In this document: piece after piece, positions 4,507-42,026 of the stretch | Numbering within the stretch: position 1 is the stretch's first letter | How the letters are laid out: every line of letters starts with the position of its first letter | Source: Candidatus Limnocylindrales bacterium | GTDB lineage: Bacteria > Chloroflexota > Limnocylindria > Limnocylindrales > CSP1-4 | NCBI GenBank assembly: GCA_035308445.1 | Contig: DATGGQ010000030.1 | Location: 52,598 to 116,597 of the forward strand | Reading direction: 5' to 3' | DNA: 64,000 nucleotides | Made by a program: the position numbers and the translations under genes | Notes under the pieces: generated by a model | The model's database searches: none | The model's input: the letters and a program-made list of their open reading frames with translations, nothing else | Told to the model about the DNA's origin: nothing

Positions 4507-4968
4507 ATGAATCGCCGATCGCCCCGCTTCGCCGGGCTCTCGTCCGTCCTGCTCCTCGTGGCGCTGGGCTCCGTGGCCTGCGGCGGTGGGGCGAGCCCCA
4601 CCACGGCGCCGGCGACATCGCCCGGGGCGAGCATCGTCTCGAGCTTCGGCCCCCGCCCGTCGTCGCCTGCCGTCGTGACGATCGTCGAGCCGACGAACGG
4701 CGCCCAGCTCAGCGGCCCGACCGTCCATGTCGTGCTGACCCTGACCGGGGCCACGATCGTGCCCGCGACGACCACGAGCATCAGCCCGACGACCGGCCAC
4801 ATCCACCTGTACGTCGACAACAACCTCGTCTCGATGAACTACGGCCTCACCCAGGACATCCCGGTGAGCCCCGGGACGTACGTCCTCAAGGCCGAGTTCG
4901 TGGCCGCCGACCACGCGCCGTTCAACCCGCGGGTCTACTCGGCCGAAGTCTTCTTCACCGTCAAGTAG
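4507..4968 (+). CDS. Lipoprotein with HxH motif (DUF4399-like), hypothetical metal-binding
   Basis: ATG 8 nt after the CopCD stop. Lipobox LVALGSVAC. Motif TGHIHLYVDNN. 153 aa. Confidence 0.6.
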   Translation: MNRRSPRFAGLSSVLLLVALGSVACGGGASPTTAPATSPGASIVSSFGPRPSSPAVVTIVEPTNGAQLSGPTVHVVLTLTGATIVPATTTSISPTTGHIHLYVDNNLVSMNYGLTQDIPVSPGTYVLKAEFVAADHAPFNPRVYSAEVFFTVK

Positions 4969-4973
4969 CGGCG

Positions 4974-5759
4974 GTGCGGCTCGCCCGGTTCACGGTCCCG
5001 CGAGCCGCCGCGGCCGCGCTCGCCGTCGGCGCCGCGTGGGCGCTCGGGGCGCAGCTCGCGTTCCCGACGCTGACCCCGCTCTACGACGGCCTGTCGCAGC
5101 TCGACCCGTACCGCTACCTGACCCCGACGGGGAGCCAGCCCGGCAATCCCGGGGGCTTCGCCTCGAAGCCCGGCCTCGACGCCAACGGCCAGAGTCGAGC
5201 CTTCGCCGCCCTCACACCCGAGAACCCGCCGCAGGCCCAGCTCATCGCGCTCGGTGGCGCCTTCGTCGCGCCAGCCGGCTCGACGTCGATGGACGTGACG
5301 ATCGAGCCCGTCCAGCCGCTCGACCAGCCGACGGCGGGGGCGATCGCCGGCAACGTCTACCGGTTCACGGTCGTGGACGATGCCGGGAACGCGTTCGGCG
5401 TCGCCCCGGGCGCCCAGCCGACGATCACGCTTCGGGAGCCCGATGGCGTGACGGACGCGGTCCTGGGCCACGACACCCCTGATGGCTGGGTCGCGCTCCA
5501 GACCGTGCATGGCGGCGCCCTCGGGCTGCTCCAGGCCCAGGTCACCGAGCTCGGCGACTATGCCGTGCTCACGGGCGTCTCGCCGCCGCTCGACCTCGGC
5601 CCGATCGCCGCGATCGGCCTCGCGATCGGGGTTCCGCTCGTCGCGGTCGCCGTCTATCTCGTGCTCCGGCTGCGTCGCGAGCGTCGGGCCCGGGCCATCG
5701 CCGCCGAATTGGCCCGCAACCGGGCCCGCGTGCCCTCCAAACGTCGTCGTCGCCGCTGA
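4974..5759 (+). CDS. Secreted membrane-anchored protein, paralog A of an unknown family
   Basis: GTG start 6 nt after the previous stop. Signal peptide, conserved blocks PLYDGLSQLDPY, PQAQLIALGGAFVAPAGSTSMDVTIEPVQP, GNVYRFTVV, ELGDYAVL, then a C-terminal TM helix and Arg-rich tail. Paralogous to 7892..8776. Confidence 0.6.
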   Translation: MRLARFTVPRAAAAALAVGAAWALGAQLAFPTLTPLYDGLSQLDPYRYLTPTGSQPGNPGGFASKPGLDANGQSRAFAALTPENPPQAQLIALGGAFVAPAGSTSMDVTIEPVQPLDQPTAGAIAGNVYRFTVVDDAGNAFGVAPGAQPTITLREPDGVTDAVLGHDTPDGWVALQTVHGGALGLLQAQVTELGDYAVLTGVSPPLDLGPIAAIGLAIGVPLVAVAVYLVLRLRRERRARAIAAELARNRARVPSKRRRRR

Positions 5760-12894: not shown

Positions 12895-14937
12895 ATGACG
12901 CCGGGCGAGCGGCGCACCCTCGCGACCCTCGCCTCGACCTTTGTTCCCGCCGCCGACGGCGAGCGGATCGCGGCCCTCGCCGACGAGGCCCTTGCCCGGG
13001 CCGCCGACCCGGCCCAGGTCAGCCAGCTCCGGCTCGTGCTCCGAGCCCTCGAGCTCGGGCCCGCCAATGGCGTCATGGCCGGTGCCTGGGGGCCGTTAAA
13101 CCGGCTGGACGCGGCGGCCCGCGAGCGGGTGCTGCTTGCCTGGGCCACGTCTCGGGTCCCCCAGCAGCGCGCGGCATTCGCCGCGTTCCGGCGGCTGCTC
13201 ACGTTCCTGGCCTACGCCGATCCCGGCCCGCCGGAGGCGCCGAACCTCCTGCCCGCAAGCATCGGCTACGACCCGGACCATCCGCCGATCACCGATGACC
13301 TGACGCCGATCCGGCCGCTCGACATCGACCGGGCCACGCACGGCTCGGACGCCACGGTCGAGCTCGAGGCCGACGTCGTCGTCGTCGGCTCCGGGGCGGG
13401 CGGCGGCGTGGTGGCCGCGGAGGCGGCCCGGGCCGGGCGCTCGGTCGTCGTGCTCGAGGCCGGGCCGTTCGTCGACGAGGCGACCATGCCACGGATCGAG
13501 CTCGACGCGTTCTCGCGCCTGTACCTCAACCATGGCCTGCTCTCGACGTGGGATGGCGCCGTGACGATCCTCGCCGGATCCGGCGTGGGCGGCGGGACGC
13601 TCGTGAACTGGATGACCTGTATCGACGCCCCGGCCGATGTCCGGGCGGAATGGGCCGCCGAGCACGGGCTCGACGGGGTCACGGATGGCGAATGGGTCGA
13701 GGACGTGGCGACCATCGAGCGCGAGCTGGGCGTCGCACCGGCGACGGTCGTCCCGCCGAAGGACGAGCTGATCCTCCGGGGGGCGGCCGCGCTCGGCTGG
13801 GAGGCGGACCACATCCGGCGCAACGCGAGCGACTGTGGCGTCTGCGGGTCATGCCCCTTCGGCTGCGTCGTCGGCGCGAAGCAGTCGGGGATCCGGGTCC
13901 ACCTGCGCGCCGCGTCGGAGGCCGGCGCCCGAATCGTCGATCGTGTCCGCGTGACGCGCGTCCTCGTGGAGGGCGGGCGCGCGGTCGGTGTCGAGGGTCG
14001 CCTGCTGGCCGCGGACCCGTTCAGCCACCTGCCGGTCACCCGCGCCGGCGACCCGACCGTTGCCGAGGTCCGGCGCCTGGTCGTCCGGGCGCCGCAGGTC
14101 GTCATCGCCGCCGGCGCGCTCCGCAGCCCGGCGGTGCTCCAGGCCTCGGGGATCGGCCATCCCGCGATCGGCCGCCACCTGCGCCTCCATCCCGTGTCCC
14201 TCGTCGCGGCCCTCATGGCCGAGCCCGCCGACATGTGGCGGGGCACGATGCAGGCGGCACGCTCGGTCCAGTTCTCGATGCCGGAGCCGGGCCGCCGCGG
14301 CTACGTCATCGAGTCGGCGCCGGGGCACCTCGGGCTCATCGCCCTCGCCCTGCCGTGGGCCGGCGCGGCGGACCACGCGGAGCTCATGGCCCGCGCCCGC
14401 CGGGTCGCGCCGCTCATCGCGGTCACGCGCGACGGGGGCGAGGGCCGGACGACGATGTCGCGTGCCGGCCGCGTCCGGATCGACTACCGGTTGGACGCCG
14501 AGGGCGTCGCGACGCTCCGGCACGCACTCGTCTCGATGGCCCGGATCGGACGGGCCGCCGGCGGCGTGTCGGAGCTCGTCGGCGTCGGCAGCCCGATGGT
14601 CCGGCACCGGCTGGACGGCGCCGACGAGGCCTCCCGCTTCGCCCGCTTCGAGGTCGACCTGGGCGCGACGGACTTCGCCCCGAATCGCGGCTCGGTCTTC
14701 TCGGCCCATCAGCTGGGCACGGTGCGGATGGGTGGCCGGTCCGCCGACCACGCGGCCGACCCGCGAGGCCATGTCCGTTCCGGCACGGGAGCCGGGGGCG
14801 GCATCGTCCGCGGGCTCTACGTCGCGGATGGCTCCACGTTCCCGACCGCGATCGGGGTGAACCCGATGCTGTCGATCATGGCGATGGCCCGGCGGATCAG
14901 CCGGACGGTGCTCGCGGAGTCGTCGACAGGGGGTTGA
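12895..14937 (+). CDS. GMC-family FAD oxidoreductase with N-terminal extension (fatty-alcohol-oxidase-like)
   Basis: FAD motif VVVGSGAGGG and the C-terminal GMC signature (HQLGTVRMG...YVADGSTFPTAIGVNPMLSIMA). ~140-aa N-terminal domain. 16 bp downstream of the acyl-CoA dehydrogenase, so a likely operon. Confidence 0.8.
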   Translation: MTPGERRTLATLASTFVPAADGERIAALADEALARAADPAQVSQLRLVLRALELGPANGVMAGAWGPLNRLDAAARERVLLAWATSRVPQQRAAFAAFRRLLTFLAYADPGPPEAPNLLPASIGYDPDHPPITDDLTPIRPLDIDRATHGSDATVELEADVVVVGSGAGGGVVAAEAARAGRSVVVLEAGPFVDEATMPRIELDAFSRLYLNHGLLSTWDGAVTILAGSGVGGGTLVNWMTCIDAPADVRAEWAAEHGLDGVTDGEWVEDVATIERELGVAPATVVPPKDELILRGAAALGWEADHIRRNASDCGVCGSCPFGCVVGAKQSGIRVHLRAASEAGARIVDRVRVTRVLVEGGRAVGVEGRLLAADPFSHLPVTRAGDPTVAEVRRLVVRAPQVVIAAGALRSPAVLQASGIGHPAIGRHLRLHPVSLVAALMAEPADMWRGTMQAARSVQFSMPEPGRRGYVIESAPGHLGLIALALPWAGAADHAELMARARRVAPLIAVTRDGGEGRTTMSRAGRVRIDYRLDAEGVATLRHALVSMARIGRAAGGVSELVGVGSPMVRHRLDGADEASRFARFEVDLGATDFAPNRGSVFSAHQLGTVRMGGRSADHAADPRGHVRSGTGAGGGIVRGLYVADGSTFPTAIGVNPMLSIMAMARRISRTVLAESSTGG

Positions 14938-15949
14938 CGCTGGCAGCCGTGACGACCCCGCGCCGGAGCCCGAGCTCGTCCGCGGTTGTCGCCGGATCGG
15001 CACCCGCCTCCTCGGACGGCGTGGCCTCGGCCCGGCTCACGCGCCCGCGGGCCGTGACGATCATCGCCACGGCCCCGATGATCACGGCCGACGAGACGAG
15101 CGTCCGGAGGCTGATCGGCTCGGCCAGGAACAGCGTCCCGAGGCCGACCGCCACGACCGGGTTCACGTAGGCATACGTGCCGATGAGCGACAGCGGGGCG
15201 TGCCGCAGGAGCCAGCCGTAGGTCGTGTAGGCGAGCATGCTGCCGAAGGCGGCGAGGTACAGGATCGCGAGGATCGACTCGGGCGAGATCGCGGACGGGT
15301 CGAACGTGCCGCCCTCGCCGATCAGGAAGCCCTCGACGAGCAGCAGCACCGACGCCGCGAGCATCTGGAGGCCCGAGGCGATGAGCGGGCGATGGGGCAG
15401 GTGGGCCTTCCTCGCGGCGTAGAGCGAGCCATGCGCCCAGCCCAGCGGTGCCAGCAGCAGCACGACGAGCCCGAACGCGTCGAAGTGGTTGGCGCCCGTG
15501 CCCGTCGGCCAGACCAGGGCTGCCACGCCGGCGAAGCCGACCACGATCCCGAGGCCGACGATGGGGCCGGGCCGCTCCCGGAAGTACAGCCAGCCGAGGA
15601 CCACGAACCAGACCGGCATCATCCCGATGAGGATCGCGGCGATGCCCGACGGCACGGTGCGCTCGCCGAGGGCCACGAACCCGTTCCCGACGGCCAGCAG
15701 CAGCCCGCCGACGATCACGGAGTCGAGGAGCTGTCGGCGGCTCGGCCAGTGGCGCGCCTCGGGGCTCCGGACGAGGTCCCAGGCGACGAGGGCCGCGCCC
15801 GCGATCACGAACCGGATGGCCGCCATGAAGAACGGCGGCACGGTCTTGATCGCGATCGCGATCCCGAAGTACGTCGAGCCCCAGATGACGTAGATGACGC
15901 CCAGCGCCAGCCACAGCCGGAGGCCCGTCGCCCGCGCGGCAGTTGGCAT
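14897..15949 (-). CDS. EamA/DMT-family transporter
   Basis: 10-TM protein with duplicated EamA halves (LWLALGVIYVIWGSTYFGIAIA...). ATG 15947-15949 chosen over the upstream TTG. The 3' end overlaps the GMC gene by 41 bp, convergently. Confidence 0.75.
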   Translation of the reverse strand: MPTAARATGLRLWLALGVIYVIWGSTYFGIAIAIKTVPPFFMAAIRFVIAGAALVAWDLVRSPEARHWPSRRQLLDSVIVGGLLLAVGNGFVALGERTVPSGIAAILIGMMPVWFVVLGWLYFRERPGPIVGLGIVVGFAGVAALVWPTGTGANHFDAFGLVVLLLAPLGWAHGSLYAARKAHLPHRPLIASGLQMLAASVLLLVEGFLIGEGGTFDPSAISPESILAILYLAAFGSMLAYTTYGWLLRHAPLSLIGTYAYVNPVVAVGLGTLFLAEPISLRTLVSSAVIIGAVAMIVTARGRVSRAEATPSEEAGADPATTADELGLRRGVVTAASVNPLSTTPRAPSG

Positions 15950-16051
15950 AGTCTGGTGGTCCAAATCAGGTCGAGACTAGCATCCGGCCGGCCCGCTCGC
16001 CACGGTTCGATTTGGTTGCGATTGGGTCCGCCGGCGAGCCGGCGCCGTGCT

Positions 16052-16831
16052 TCAGGCAGCGAGCGAGACCGGGCGGCAGTGGCGGCACGGCCGGTAGCCG
16101 GCAACCGTGGCCGCACGGAGCGATCCGAACCTGACCCGGTGTCGAGGAGTGACCCGCCGGGCGTCGCGACACGTCGGGTGGCAGACGATGTGGGTCGTGT
16201 CCGAGCCCACGTACCGGAAGCCCTCGGCCGCCTCGGCCTCGAGACCGGGCACGTCGACGCCCTCGGCCGCGAGCACGCGGCGCTTGTTGTCCGAGCCGCC
16301 CATCGAGTAGTTCCCGATGTGGCCGTCGCTCCGGACGACGCGGTGGCACGGCACGACGAGCGGGACCGGGTTGCGGGCCAGGGCCGTCCCGACCGCTCGG
16401 ACGGCCTTCGGGTGCCCGATCTCGGCCGCGATCCAGCCATACGGCCGGACCTCCCCGCGGGGGATCTCGAGCGCCTTCCGCCAGACGGCAGCCTCGAACG
16501 ACGTCGAGCCGCGGAGATCGAGCTCGATCCTGGCCCGGCGGTCGCCGCCGAGGCGGCGGGCGATCGACCGCGCCAGCTTCGGTGGCAGAGCCTCCGCCCG
16601 CGAGGCCGGCCGGCCCGTGTGGTCCGTGAGCGCCTGCTCGAAGCGGGCCGGGTCGCCGGCCAGGGCCACCCACGACACGCCGCGCCCGTTCCAGGCGACG
16701 AACACCTCGCCGAGCGGCGATTCCGTCGCGGCAAATCGATCGGCGAGGCCGAGCGCCACGAGCGTGTTGGTGGCGAGCGAGGCCGGAGCCGTCGCGCGAA
16801 GGGTCGCGAGCTGCATCTCGAGGGTCGTCAT
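16052..16831 (-). CDS. ogt: Methylated-DNA-protein-cysteine methyltransferase (Ogt) with C-terminal Ada-type Zn-finger domain
   Basis: GGAGG RBS 7 nt before ATG 16829-16831. MGMT active-site motif PCHRVV and NPVPLVVPCHRVVRSDGHIGNY. C-terminal 65 aa HIVCHPTCRDARR...GYRPCRHC resembles the Ada N-terminal Cys4 zinc-binding module. ATGA overlap with the upstream ECF sigma gene. Confidence 0.8.
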   Translation of the reverse strand: MTTLEMQLATLRATAPASLATNTLVALGLADRFAATESPLGEVFVAWNGRGVSWVALAGDPARFEQALTDHTGRPASRAEALPPKLARSIARRLGGDRRARIELDLRGSTSFEAAVWRKALEIPRGEVRPYGWIAAEIGHPKAVRAVGTALARNPVPLVVPCHRVVRSDGHIGNYSMGGSDNKRRVLAAEGVDVPGLEAEAAEGFRYVGSDTTHIVCHPTCRDARRVTPRHRVRFGSLRAATVAGYRPCRHCRPVSLAA

Positions 16832-17481
16832 GCGGGCACCTCCGCGGTCGCCAGTGGGCGGCCGCCATGGATCGGGGAGCGGGGTCGCACGATGGAGGTC
16901 GAGGCGACGTCGATCTCTCGAGGCTCGAGGCGGAGGCGCATCCGCTCGAGGCCGCGGGCGACCTGGGCCTTGATCGTGCCTTCCGGTCGGCCCAGGGCTT
17001 CCGCCGTCTCGGCGACCGAGAGGCCGTCGACATGGCGGAGGACGACGGCGGCTCGCATCGTCGGGGACAGGTCGAGGAGGGCCGACGCGAGGTCGGCGAT
17101 CGCCTCCCGTCGCGCCATGGCCTGGGCGCCGGCGTCGCCGCCGTCGTCGGCGGGATCGAAGCCGGTCGCGAGCATCGGCTCGAGGGAGCGCGGCGGCCGT
17201 CGATCCTCGAGCCGGCGACGCCGGTTCCGGGCGAGGTTCACGGCGATCGAAGCGAGCCACGGTCGCAGCCGGAGGTCGCGCGTCCGCTCGGCGGGATAGC
17301 CCGCGATCGCCCGATACGCGCGGATGAGCGCGTCCTGGGCCACCTCCTCGGCGTCGCGAGGGTCGCCGAGGAGGCGGAAGGCGATCGTGAACAGCCGGTT
17401 CGAGTGATCGGCCACCAGGGCCGGGAACGCCTCGTCGAGGTCGGCCGCGAGCCGGCTCGCGAGGTGCGCGTCGGTGTCCAT
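16828..17481 (-). CDS. RNA polymerase sigma factor, ECF subfamily
   Basis: Region 2 (LIRAYRAIAGYP...WLASIAVNLARNRRRR) and region 4 (DGLSVAETAEALGRPEGTIKAQVARG) are present. The start is ambiguous: ATG 17479-17481 is chosen, GTG 17494-17496 is the alternative. Confidence 0.8.
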   Translation of the reverse strand: MDTDAHLASRLAADLDEAFPALVADHSNRLFTIAFRLLGDPRDAEEVAQDALIRAYRAIAGYPAERTRDLRLRPWLASIAVNLARNRRRRLEDRRPPRSLEPMLATGFDPADDGGDAGAQAMARREAIADLASALLDLSPTMRAAVVLRHVDGLSVAETAEALGRPEGTIKAQVARGLERMRLRLEPREIDVASTSIVRPRSPIHGGRPLATAEVPA

Positions 17482-17539
17482 CGCCTCTCTCAACACGGCC
17501 TCCGTCGGAACGGTTGCAGTGTGCGCGAGGCGGCCGCCG

Positions 17540-17920
17540 TCAGCCGGTGATCGTGATGGTCCCCTTCATCGACGAATGGATCGAGCAGTGGAACGGGTAC
17601 GTGCCGGCCTGGGTGAACGTCAGGCTGGCCGAGGAGCCGGTCGTGATGTGGCCCGTGTCGCAGCCGCCCGCGTCGAGCGTCACCGTGTGGTCCGTCGGAC
17701 CGGAGTTCTTCCACGTGATGACGTCGCCGACCTTTGCCGTCACGTTCGTCGGATTGAACTGGAAATCCGCGACGCCGGCCTCGACGGTGCCGGTCGCCGT
17801 GGTCACCGTGCAGCCGCCAGGTGCGGCGGCCTGCGAGCCACCTGCGCCACCCGAGCCGGAGCAGGCCGAGAGGGCCACGACGGTGAGCGCGCCGACGGCG
17901 AGGCGAGCGAAACGATGCAC
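17540..17920 (-). CDS. Cupredoxin (type-1 blue copper protein, pseudoazurin/plastocyanin-like) lipoprotein
   Basis: Lipobox ALSAC, copper ligands H (DHTV) ... C-x2-H-x4-M (HCSIHSSMKG). 126 aa. Confidence 0.75.
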   Translation of the reverse strand: MHRFARLAVGALTVVALSACSGSGGAGGSQAAAPGGCTVTTATGTVEAGVADFQFNPTNVTAKVGDVITWKNSGPTDHTVTLDAGGCDTGHITTGSSASLTFTQAGTYPFHCSIHSSMKGTITITG

Positions 17921-17990
17921 GGGAGAGGCTCCGATCGATTGGGCCGATGGTCGTTGGAATGTACGTCGGCAGGCCCGGTATGGTTCGCGC

Positions 17991-18833
17991 GTGCCCGAGT
18001 CCCTGCGCGATCCGGCGCTCGGCGAGCGCCTGCTCCTCCACGAGGCCCGGGCGCAACAGTCGCCCGGGCGCGAGCTCCGGGACCTGGGCGACGGCTGGCT
18101 CTTCTACGACCCGGCGGACCCAGAGCCATTCTGGAATCGGCTGATCGGCCCGCGCTGGCCGTCGGAGCCGGCACGGTTCGCCCGGCGGCTCGACGAGGTC
18201 GTCACGCTGTTCGCGACGCTCGACCGGATCGCCCACGTCCGACCGCTGCCCGCCGGCAACGAGCCCGCTGACATCGAGGCCCGGCTGCTCGCGTCGGGCT
18301 TCGACCGGATCGGGTCGGACCGGCGCATGGTCCTCGTCGACCCCGGGCCGGCCCGTCGTCTGGTCGCGGCGTGGGCGCCACGGCTCACCGGGCCGCTGAC
18401 GGTCGACCGACAGCCGGGTCGCCCGCTGGCGATTCGGGAGGGCTGGGCCGAGGACGCCGCCCTCGTGGTGGGCGAGGCCTTCGGCGTCGATCCGTTCCGT
18501 CGGGTCGCCCTCGAGACGGACATGCTCGCCTGCGCCGCGCGCCCCGGCTGCTCGGTCGTGCTGCTGCGCCACGATGGCCAGCCTGTCGCCGTGGCCCGGC
18601 GCGCGACGGTCGCCGGCGGCTCGTACCTGTCCTCGATCGGCACGCGGCCGGCCTGGCGAGGTCGGGGCTATGGCTCGCTGGTGACCGCGCTCGCCGTCGT
18701 CGAGGCCCTCGATGCCGGCGGCGAGCTCGTCCATCTCGCGGTCGACGTGCTGAACGCCCATGGACAGGGCTTCTACGAGGCGCTCGGGTTCGCCGTGCTC
18801 GGGGATCCGGTGGCGGATCTCGTGCTGCGATGA
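17991..18833 (+). CDS. GNAT-family N-acetyltransferase with N-terminal extension
   Basis: The only in-frame start after the divergent cupredoxin gene is GTG 17991. C-terminal acetyl-CoA-binding block SIGTRPAWRGRGYGSLV...GFYEALGF. Confidence 0.6.
   Translation: MPESLRDPALGERLLLHEARAQQSPGRELRDLGDGWLFYDPADPEPFWNRLIGPRWPSEPARFARRLDEVVTLFATLDRIAHVRPLPAGNEPADIEARLLASGFDRIGSDRRMVLVDPGPARRLVAAWAPRLTGPLTVDRQPGRPLAIREGWAEDAALVVGEAFGVDPFRRVALETDMLACAARPGCSVVLLRHDGQPVAVARRATVAGGSYLSSIGTRPAWRGRGYGSLVTALAVVEALDAGGELVHLAVDVLNAHGQGFYEALGFAVLGDPVADLVLR

Positions 18834-41951: not shown

Positions 41952-42026
<75 letters not shown>

Follow-up and report, generated by a model that had tools for sequence, protein, structure and literature searches.

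We analyzed a 64,000-nt stretch of DNA from a Candidatus Limnocylindrales bacterium (contig DATGGQ010000030.1; G+C content about 73%), which is hereafter called the window. On its minus strand, a gene for an extracytoplasmic function (ECF) sigma factor overlaps a gene for a 259-amino acid (aa) protein, which is a complete two-domain alkyltransferase fold followed by an Ada-type Cys4 zinc module. An initial annotation made from the sequence alone had viewed this protein as a repair enzyme under sigma-factor coupling. The coupling turned out to be strongly conserved; the relationship, however, is probably that of a sigma/anti-sigma pair, because some homologues of the enzyme carry a true zinc anti-sigma (ZAS) domain and the window protein appears to keep a helix-4-like remnant of it. 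We propose that the protein is a cytoplasmic anti-sigma factor that would bind the sigma factor and release it upon its own irreversible alkylation. Judged from comparative evidence, the prospects of this proposal are about evenly balanced.

The alkyltransferase gene is paired with an ECF sigma gene in two phyla

The open reading frame (ORF) upstream of the alkyltransferase gene matched Sigma70_r2 (E = 1.2e-13) and Sigma70_r4_2 (E = 3.3e-13) in Pfam and sigma70-ECF (TIGR02937) in NCBIfam, and its product has regions 2 and 4 only, that is, the ECF architecture. A sigma gene was located directly upstream of the alkyltransferase gene in 79 of 79 close loci with upstream sequence. The ATGA overlap with the sigma gene, which had been pointed out in the initial annotation, was seen in the window and recurred as an identical 4-nt overlap (ATGA or GTGA) in 76 of these 79 loci; the other three look like frameshifted assemblies.

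Among 1.84 billion cluster representatives, 223 relatives were found below E = 1e-30, many of which were only 37–55% identical. We looked up the genomic context of nine distant alkyltransferases from Ktedonobacterales, an unclassified Chloroflexota genome (ZAS-type locus L089/L090) and Acidimicrobiales, covering subtypes with and without the zinc domain. All nine had an ECF sigma gene directly upstream, whereas their other neighbors differed. From the sigma side, a search with the Acidimicrobiales sigma factor gave three homologues that were picked blind to context, and all three have an alkyltransferase gene directly downstream. The pair was therefore present in 12 of 12 distant look-ups, among them an Actinobacteria metagenome-assembled genome (MAG), in the phyla Chloroflexota and Actinomycetota. 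This two-way linkage across phyla favors an anti-sigma role for the alkyltransferase. In most of the distant loci the two genes overlap by 1–14 nt; the exceptions are L089 (91-nt gap) and L094 (14-nt gap). The sigma factors belong to one family, with a common N-terminal LAxDLDxAF motif and the same promoter geometry, and the window sigma factor is 47–48% identical to its counterparts in L091, from an Acidimicrobiales MAG, and in L093, which has no taxonomic assignment.

The catalytic Cys-His-Arg was retained in every examined representative that was not frameshifted or truncated. Because about half of the representatives lack the zinc domain and are equally sigma-coupled, the Ada-type zinc site is not essential to the proposed principle; by this comparison, only some members of the family carry the zinc module, as an accessory. 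Two relatives considered as natural sigma–alkyltransferase fusions (P0200 and P0224) were rejected as frameshift-ridden read-through chimeras. P0190 (287 aa) apparently reads in frame from sigma region 2 into the catalytic domain of the alkyltransferase and on to the Ada zinc domain; it may have arisen by deletion or be a chimera of the assembly.

The N-terminal segment resembles part of a zinc anti-sigma domain

Canonical Ogt and Ada-C begin at about residue 28 of the window protein. The extra N-terminal segment shows the pattern L..L...AP..L...VL...GLAD, which is conserved across the whole subfamily including distant relatives. In 12 of 150 representatives, which we call the ZAS type, this segment is extended to a full domain with an invariant C...H-x3-C-x2-C motif. 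According to Pfam, homologues at 37–48% identity are composed of zf-HC2, then DNA_binding_1 and then Ada_Zn_binding; zf-HC2 (PF13490) was called in four of the five ZAS-type proteins scanned (P0144, P0145, P0166 and P0209) and was not matched in the fifth (P0167). A profile of the ZAS domain matched RsiW (5wuq; E = 1.5e-7, all 71 positions), RslA (3hug), DdvA and ChrR (2q1z). Eleven of the 12 ZAS-type proteins also contain the Ada-type zinc domain, so that the latter is no substitute for the ZAS motif.

In the AlphaFold2 model of P0145 (predicted local distance difference test score, pLDDT, 94.8), a three-helix bundle is followed by a lower-confidence linker and a fourth helix (residues 62–70), which leads directly into strand 1 of the alkyltransferase fold. 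The top 50 matches of a structure search with the ZAS-type model were only alkyltransferases and N-Ada. An hhalign comparison of profiles placed residues 1–28 of the window protein on positions 44–71 of the ZAS domain (probability 89%, E = 2e-6), a stretch that extends from the last part of helix 3 through the linker to helix 4. Two helices in the model of the window protein (residues 2–9 and 17–26) match this arrangement, and helix 17–26 corresponds to helix 62–70 of P0145. The window protein probably keeps only a helix-4-like remnant of a class I anti-sigma domain. Helix 4 of such domains binds sigma regions 2.1/2.2 and excludes RNA polymerase, and most of the co-evolving sigma/anti-sigma contacts sit in this helix (PMC7406223). 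A Pfam scan of the window found no other anti-sigma candidate gene near the pair.

Domains, residues and fold of the alkyltransferase

The initial annotation had recognized an MGMT domain with PCHRVV followed by an Ada-type Cys4 zinc module, in the reverse of the order in Ada and without an AraC-type helix-turn-helix (HTH), and our searches bore this out. Pfam placed DNA_binding_1 (PF01035) at residues 112–192 (E = 6.5e-31; 106.5 bits, cutoff 27) and Ada_Zn_binding (PF02805) at residues 201–254 (E = 1.5e-9; 38.2 bits, cutoff 23), and the NCBIfam ogt model (TIGR00589) scored 96.2 bits against a cutoff of 46.4. The order, with MGMT first and zinc last, was apparent from the Pfam placement, from Foldseek and from the cysteine alignment. 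No AraC-type HTH (HTH_AraC or HTH_18) was found by Pfam at E ≤ 0.01. The NCBIfam Ada model aligned residues 29–190 to positions 187–348 of Ada, and its equivalog threshold was missed (113 bits against a cutoff of 345). Because the AraC domain is missing and the order is reversed, the window protein falls outside the Ada regulator family. Homologous proteins bear the database name 'methylated-DNA--protein-cysteine methyltransferase'.

The match to PF02805 covered profile positions 12–64 of 65, leaving positions 1–11, the first N-Ada helix, unmatched; in the AlphaFold2 model, this helix is replaced by the C-terminal helix of the alkyltransferase and a linker. The zinc ligands C217, C221, C249 and C252 (CX3C...CX2C) all aligned with C38, C42, C69 and C72 of Escherichia coli Ada in a comparison with N-Ada from the PDB (1adn; E = 1.3e-5). 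These residues are invariant in 114 homologues. Across 79 family sequences taken from 80 genome loci, C217 and C221, like the catalytic C162, are invariant, and C249 and C252 are retained in 97–99%, where the shortfall is one gapped sequence per column. The residues required for catalysis and base flipping (Y131, R145, N154, C162, H163, R164, Y175 and E190) are invariant or nearly so in 22–114 diverse homologues, and this set aligned with Mycobacterium tuberculosis OGT and Ada-C. Cys162 is predicted to accept the alkyl group from O6-alkylguanine, and proteins of the zinc subtype probably take a methyl group from methylphosphotriesters onto Cys217.

The AlphaFold2 model of the 259-aa protein (mean pLDDT 95.2; predicted template modeling score, pTM, 0.88) forms one compact unit. 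In Foldseek comparisons, residues ~28–190 superposed on Ada-C (1sfe; template modeling score, TM, 0.81 over 166 columns), the TM against M. tuberculosis OGT (4wx9) was 0.79, and values for the alkyltransferase fold against Ada-C, M. tuberculosis OGT and human AGT ranged from 0.73 to 0.84. Residues 206–254 superposed on methylated N-Ada (1u8b; 51 columns, root-mean-square deviation 1.8). That a frameshift or an assembly error joined ogt to a separate small zinc-finger gene is barely conceivable and is contradicted by the conservation data. At least 120 homologues were found; among the matches listed, which were 71–100% identical, 258–287 aa long and derived from many samples, 120 of 120 contained both domains, and the same uninterrupted architecture and length were seen in 80 genomes. 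The single compact unit of the model also argues against an artefact, and no support for one was found, although the relatives P0200 and P0224 are clearly frameshifted chimeras.

The zinc domain also raises the possibility that the self-methylated protein acts as an Ada-like co-activator, which would bind DNA near the promoter and aid the sigma–RNA polymerase holoenzyme. Methylation of Cys38, which lies in the homologous zinc domain, indeed turns E. coli Ada into an activator, and this domain is well conserved in window-type proteins. We nevertheless regard such a role as very improbable, because the protein has no sequence-specific AraC HTH, members without the zinc domain are coupled to a sigma gene alike, and its N-terminus is homologous to an anti-sigma element that inhibits.

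A conserved promoter-like motif precedes the sigma gene

A DNA alignment of 69 loci revealed the motif GCAAC-N18-GTT (–10 region cGTGTT) upstream of the sigma gene. The spacer was 18 nt in 64 of 66 sites, and the distance from GTT to the ATG, which begins a conserved ATGGAC, was 10 nt in 50 of 66. The motif putatively functions as a promoter, one that would depend on the adjacent sigma factor; its conservation with a fixed geometry suggests autoregulation. In the window, it is the sole match to GCAAC-N18-GTT in 64 kb (0.27 expected) and the only site above 10 bits (33.2 bits) for a matrix built from the 66 orthologous sites. In 684 kb of related loci, we counted 103 exact matches, compared with about 3 expected by chance (scaled from 0.27 per 64 kb), and nearly every related locus having any match had one just 5΄ of the sigma gene. 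The same motif was located at the sigma start in the distant loci L089–L093 and L159.

The most likely start of the sigma gene is the ATG at 17481 (217 aa) rather than the GTG at 17496, because the conserved ATGGAC follows the promoter motif and the GTG falls inside the conserved –10 region. Since the –10 element is only 10 nt from this ATG in 50 of 66 loci, and in distant phyla as well, the sigma mRNA would be nearly leaderless. The alkyltransferase gene has a normal GGAGGT within the sigma coding sequence. This GGAGGT is embedded in the 3΄ codons of the sigma gene, and the sigma C-terminal ...AEV.. is kept in near relatives while the remaining tail varies; it may serve as the ribosome-binding site of the alkyltransferase gene.

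Further matches were found outside this context. In one subclade (L021, L023, L025, L026, L028, L032, L035, L039, L048, L049, L053, L059, L061 and L071), a second exact GCAAC-N18-GTT lies inside the sigma coding region, approximately 302 nt 3΄ of the main promoter, and could act as an internal promoter that serves the alkyltransferase gene, or could result from conservation of the encoded ...NRARV.RV... residues. When metagenomes were scanned with a 15-base promoter pattern, most of the matches were due to chance and lay in low-GC contigs, and 7 of 120 were true sigma promoters. Two related contigs with 72–73% G+C (L165 and L193) contain a promoter-like pattern about 100 nt 5΄ of a gene for a PhoD-like phosphatase with a twin-arginine translocation (Tat) signal, with no sigma gene nearby; this pattern is probably due to chance or to another ECF regulon, and we judged it uninformative.

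Proposed mechanism and its assessment

We propose that the locus is an autoregulated module of two genes, or perhaps three with the EamA-family transporter gene described below. The conserved ECF-type promoter would drive the nearly leaderless sigma gene, to which the alkyltransferase gene would be translationally coupled, and the unmodified protein would hold the sigma factor, at least through the N-terminal helix derived from anti-sigma helix 4. Repair of alkylated DNA would move the alkyl group irreversibly onto Cys162; in the zinc subtype, transfer of a methyl group from a methylphosphotriester onto Cys217 could report a second lesion. In alkyltransferases from archaea to humans, alkylation rearranges the contacts of the N-terminal with the C-terminal domain and destabilizes the protein, which is then degraded (PMC5751216). 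An equivalent change in the window protein, whose helix-4-like element is attached directly to the N-terminal domain that would rearrange, may free the sigma factor. The freed sigma factor would then transcribe its own operon and resupply sigma factor and fresh alkyltransferase 1:1, and the response would end once the unmodified protein again exceeds free sigma factor, so that it would be self-limiting and proportional to damage. More specifically, the protein could be a suicide anti-sigma factor, in which each repair event consumes one inhibitor and frees one sigma factor, and which in the zinc subtype has two acceptors (Cys162 for O6-alkylguanine and Cys217 for methylphosphotriesters). We put forward this stoichiometric version tentatively, with somewhat less than even confidence.

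Several observations weigh against the anti-sigma proposal. The window protein lacks the HxxxCxxC motif and anti-sigma helices 1–3, and no anti-sigma model of Pfam matches it. The short window-type N-terminal profile by itself had no significant match to solved structures, and for this reason the anti-sigma link is drawn through the ZAS-type homologues. In the monomer model, the N-terminal helices are packed with high confidence (pLDDT 82–97), and they could be a structural part of the N-domain of this subfamily rather than a free binding helix. Neither pattern nor matrix scans found a second promoter site in the 64-kb window, all sequences compared are from uncultured organisms, and overlapping genes also occur for ordinary co-expressed proteins.

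The simplest rival explanation is plain co-expression, in which a bifunctional repair enzyme is the first target of a sigma factor that is controlled by other means, such as its own transcription or a partner encoded elsewhere, without any contact between the two proteins. The intact set of catalytic residues fits this explanation, as do the well-packed N-terminal helices and the lack of a recognizable anti-sigma Pfam domain, and ECF sigma factors without anti-sigma factors exist (PMC8999054). It fits less well with the conserved N-terminal add-on that is homologous to part of an anti-sigma domain, and with relatives in which a complete zinc anti-sigma domain is fused to the same enzyme. Moreover, the strict one-to-one adjacency in every lineage sampled is typical of sigma/anti-sigma pairs, and in locus L088 a separate canonical ogt adjoins the pair, which would make a second, purely catalytic copy redundant. 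We therefore consider plain co-expression viable but unlikely, and the other rivals, namely the Ada-like role and the redox switch discussed below, weaker.

Features of the locus and neighboring genes

The gene order on the minus strand is cupredoxin, ECF sigma factor and 259-aa protein, and the coordinates are summarized in Table 1.

Table 1. Features of the sigma/alkyltransferase locus in the window
Feature	Position	Strand	Remarks
Cupredoxin gene	17540-17920	(-)	Matches PF13473 and PF00127; upstream of the sigma gene, same strand
Putative ECF-type promoter GCAAC-N18-GTT	17492..17517	(-)	-35 GCAAC 17517-17513; -10 cGTGTT ending at 17492
ECF sigma gene, 217 aa	16828..17481	(-)	Start ATG 17481; stop TGA 16830-16828
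Putative ribosome-binding sequence GGAGGT	16838..16843	(-)	Within the last sigma codons; 6 nt 5΄ of the alkyltransferase ATG
ATGA stop/start overlap	16828..16831	(-)	Alkyltransferase ATG 16831-16829 over sigma TGA 16830-16828
Alkyltransferase/Ada-zinc gene, 259 aa	16052..16831	(-)	Proposed cytoplasmic anti-sigma factor and alkylation sensor
N-terminal segment, aa 1-31	16739..16831	(-)	Model helices 2-9 and 17-26; without counterpart in canonical Ogt/Ada-C
Alkyltransferase N-terminal (ribonuclease-like) domain, ~aa 31-105	16517..16741	(-)	NCBIfam Ada model and Foldseek match
Alkyltransferase catalytic/DNA-binding domain, aa 112-192	16256..16498	(-)	PF01035; Cys162 codon 16346-16348 within PCHRVV
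Ada-type Cys4 zinc domain, aa 201-254	16070..16231	(-)	PF02805
Zinc Cys codons	C217 16181-16183, C221 16169-16171, C249 16085-16087, C252 16076-16078	(-)
EamA-family transporter gene	14897..15964	(-)	PF00892, E = 2.5e-33; 87 nt 3΄ of the alkyltransferase gene

The initial annotation had included the cupredoxin gene, which is indeed present upstream on the same strand. We rejected it as a member of the module, because the conserved promoter motif lies downstream of it, between the cupredoxin and sigma genes, and because its position varies: in related genomes the gene is adjacent, 1–2 kb off or absent. By inspection, the N-terminus of the cupredoxin resembles a lipoprotein signal ending in LSAC. 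A 439-aa ORF with a GNAT acetyltransferase domain on the plus strand (17514-18833) overlaps the cupredoxin gene. Some related loci match this ORF only from about residue 150 and others from residue 3–13, and the real GNAT gene may start later (roughly at 17970), divergent from the cupredoxin gene.

Nearly all close loci have an EamA gene 3΄ of the pair. In Ktedonobacterales, EamA is the gene immediately 5΄ of sigma and follows a copy of the promoter motif; in L092 it is divergent from the pair. EamA thus accompanies the pair in at least three arrangements (14897-15964 on the minus strand in the window, 1826-2794 in L085, 1452-2342 in L092 and 4209-5201 in L095). It is possibly the third gene of the transcription unit, although this is uncertain; it may belong to the regulon and could, for instance, export a metabolite that is toxic or alkylating. 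A search for a terminator in the interval that separates EamA from the alkyltransferase gene found none, in a test that is weak in high-GC DNA.

Genes for DNA repair recur beside the pair in other lineages. In L088, a gene for Oxygenase-NA (PF09859, an AlkB-like 2-oxoglutarate dioxygenase; 1611-2318) is located upstream and a canonical 172-aa ogt (4585-5103) just downstream. In L159, a contig with 77% G+C, the sigma, alkyltransferase and Oxygenase-NA (1366-1932) genes overlap by 4 nt each behind the same promoter. In both actinobacterial loci, a convergent fpg (Fpg/Nei) gene lies immediately downstream of the pair (2388-3173 in L091 and 3808-4683 in L094, both on the minus strand). These results support a role in alkylation damage, and they strengthen the suggestion of the initial annotation that the response to alkylation is wired in an alternative way. 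In L093, ruvABC is located nearby.

The same neighborhoods bear on a further explanation, in which the protein is an anti-sigma factor that responds, like RsrA-type zinc anti-sigma factors, to oxidation or to direct attack by electrophiles at its Cys4 zinc site (or at its active-site thiolate), with repair being incidental. Zinc–thiolate sites are reactive, relatives have the ZAS motif, and a copper protein gene and oxidoreductase genes are located nearby in the window. On the other hand, about half of the family has neither zinc site and keeps the sigma coupling, linkage of the cupredoxin gene is not conserved, and DNA-alkylation repair genes are what recur nearby. In addition, all residues for DNA binding and base flipping (Tyr, Arg finger, Asn hinge and Glu) are conserved, although a pure thiol switch would have no need of them. 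We consider this explanation improbable.

Of the remaining features, a gene for a GMC-family FAD oxidoreductase (12895-14937, plus strand) is convergent with the module and syntenic in most close loci and in the more distant L082 (5787-7700 in L082 and 5241-5579 in L095). The window also contains tRNA-Arg(TCT) (786-862) and tRNA-Lys(CTT) (41952-42026), both on the plus strand and without relation to the sigma/alkyltransferase module.

Comparison with known systems

We found no description in the literature of an alkyltransferase anti-sigma factor, of a ZAS–alkyltransferase–Ada-zinc architecture or of a reversed Ada arrangement. If the proposal is true, the adaptive response to alkylation in bacteria would have a third architecture, one that is based on a sigma factor and is widespread in Chloroflexota and Actinomycetota, and bacteria without an AraC-type Ada could nevertheless induce a response to alkylation. 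The protein would also be the first DNA-repair enzyme shown to be an anti-sigma factor, and sigma/anti-sigma pairs would gain a new mode of sensing, the irreversible self-modification of an enzyme driven by DNA damage. A full anti-sigma domain would then be reducible to a single helix grafted onto an enzyme, and the sigma factor, promoter and alkylating-agent sensor could form a compact orthogonal part for synthetic biology.

The association of a sigma factor with a methyltransferase has already been catalogued, since a review of non-canonical ECF sigma factors lists group ECF122, exemplified by a Cellulomonas protein (WP_057211282.1), with a conserved 6-O-methylguanine DNA methyltransferase nearby and an unknown mechanism (PMC8999054). 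In the same review, this group, which stems from the 2021 reclassification by Casas-Pastor et al., is listed among those without a known anti-sigma factor (PMC8999054); the main text of Casas-Pastor et al. 2021 does not mention ECF122. Compared with the window sigma factor through this group description, ECF122 is alike in combining an ECF sigma factor and a conserved methyltransferase neighbor with no recognized anti-sigma factor. The description, as far as available, differs in that it includes no Ada-zinc fusion, ZAS-fused forms, helix-4-like N-terminus, overlap or promoter (PMC8999054). The module described here occurs in Actinomycetota too, and no Cellulomonas sequence was among the homologues of the Acidimicrobiales sigma factor. 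The control of ECF sigma factors for which no regulator is known is a standing question, and for ECF122 our evidence could supply a specific regulator and signal that lend themselves to testing.

Class I zinc anti-sigma factors (RsrA–sigmaR, RsiW–sigmaW, RslA–sigmaL and ChrR–sigmaE) are likewise encoded directly downstream of, and coupled to, an autoregulated ECF sigma gene. Relatives of the window protein have the HxxxCxxC domain of this class, whereas the window protein itself probably keeps only an equivalent of helix 4. RsrA is a soluble sensor that is inactivated by covalent thiol modification, and the proposed output of the window protein is similar; the difference is that here a DNA repair enzyme would take the part of the sensor, and that the signal would be an irreversible alkyl transfer from DNA. 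With canonical Ogt/MGMT, the window protein shares the fold and the complete catalytic set, but it has an extra N-terminus of about 30 aa, a C-terminal zinc domain and an obligate sigma pairing.

The two chemistries of Ada are distributed differently in Gram-positive lineages, where AdaA/AdaB of Bacillus subtilis and AdaA-AlkA with Ogt of M. tuberculosis are alternative arrangements. These systems keep the AraC-type activator, and none of them uses a sigma factor. E. coli Ada resembles the window protein in combining a Cys4 methylphosphotriester acceptor and an O6-alkylguanine alkyltransferase in one suicide protein, and the zinc cysteines and PCHR align between the two. Self-alkylation of Ada switches on its own gene and repair genes, and a similar logic is proposed for the window protein. 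The latter differs in its reversed domain order, in the absence of the AraC HTH and of the first N-Ada helix, and in its output, which would be the release of a dedicated sigma factor rather than binding to a promoter.

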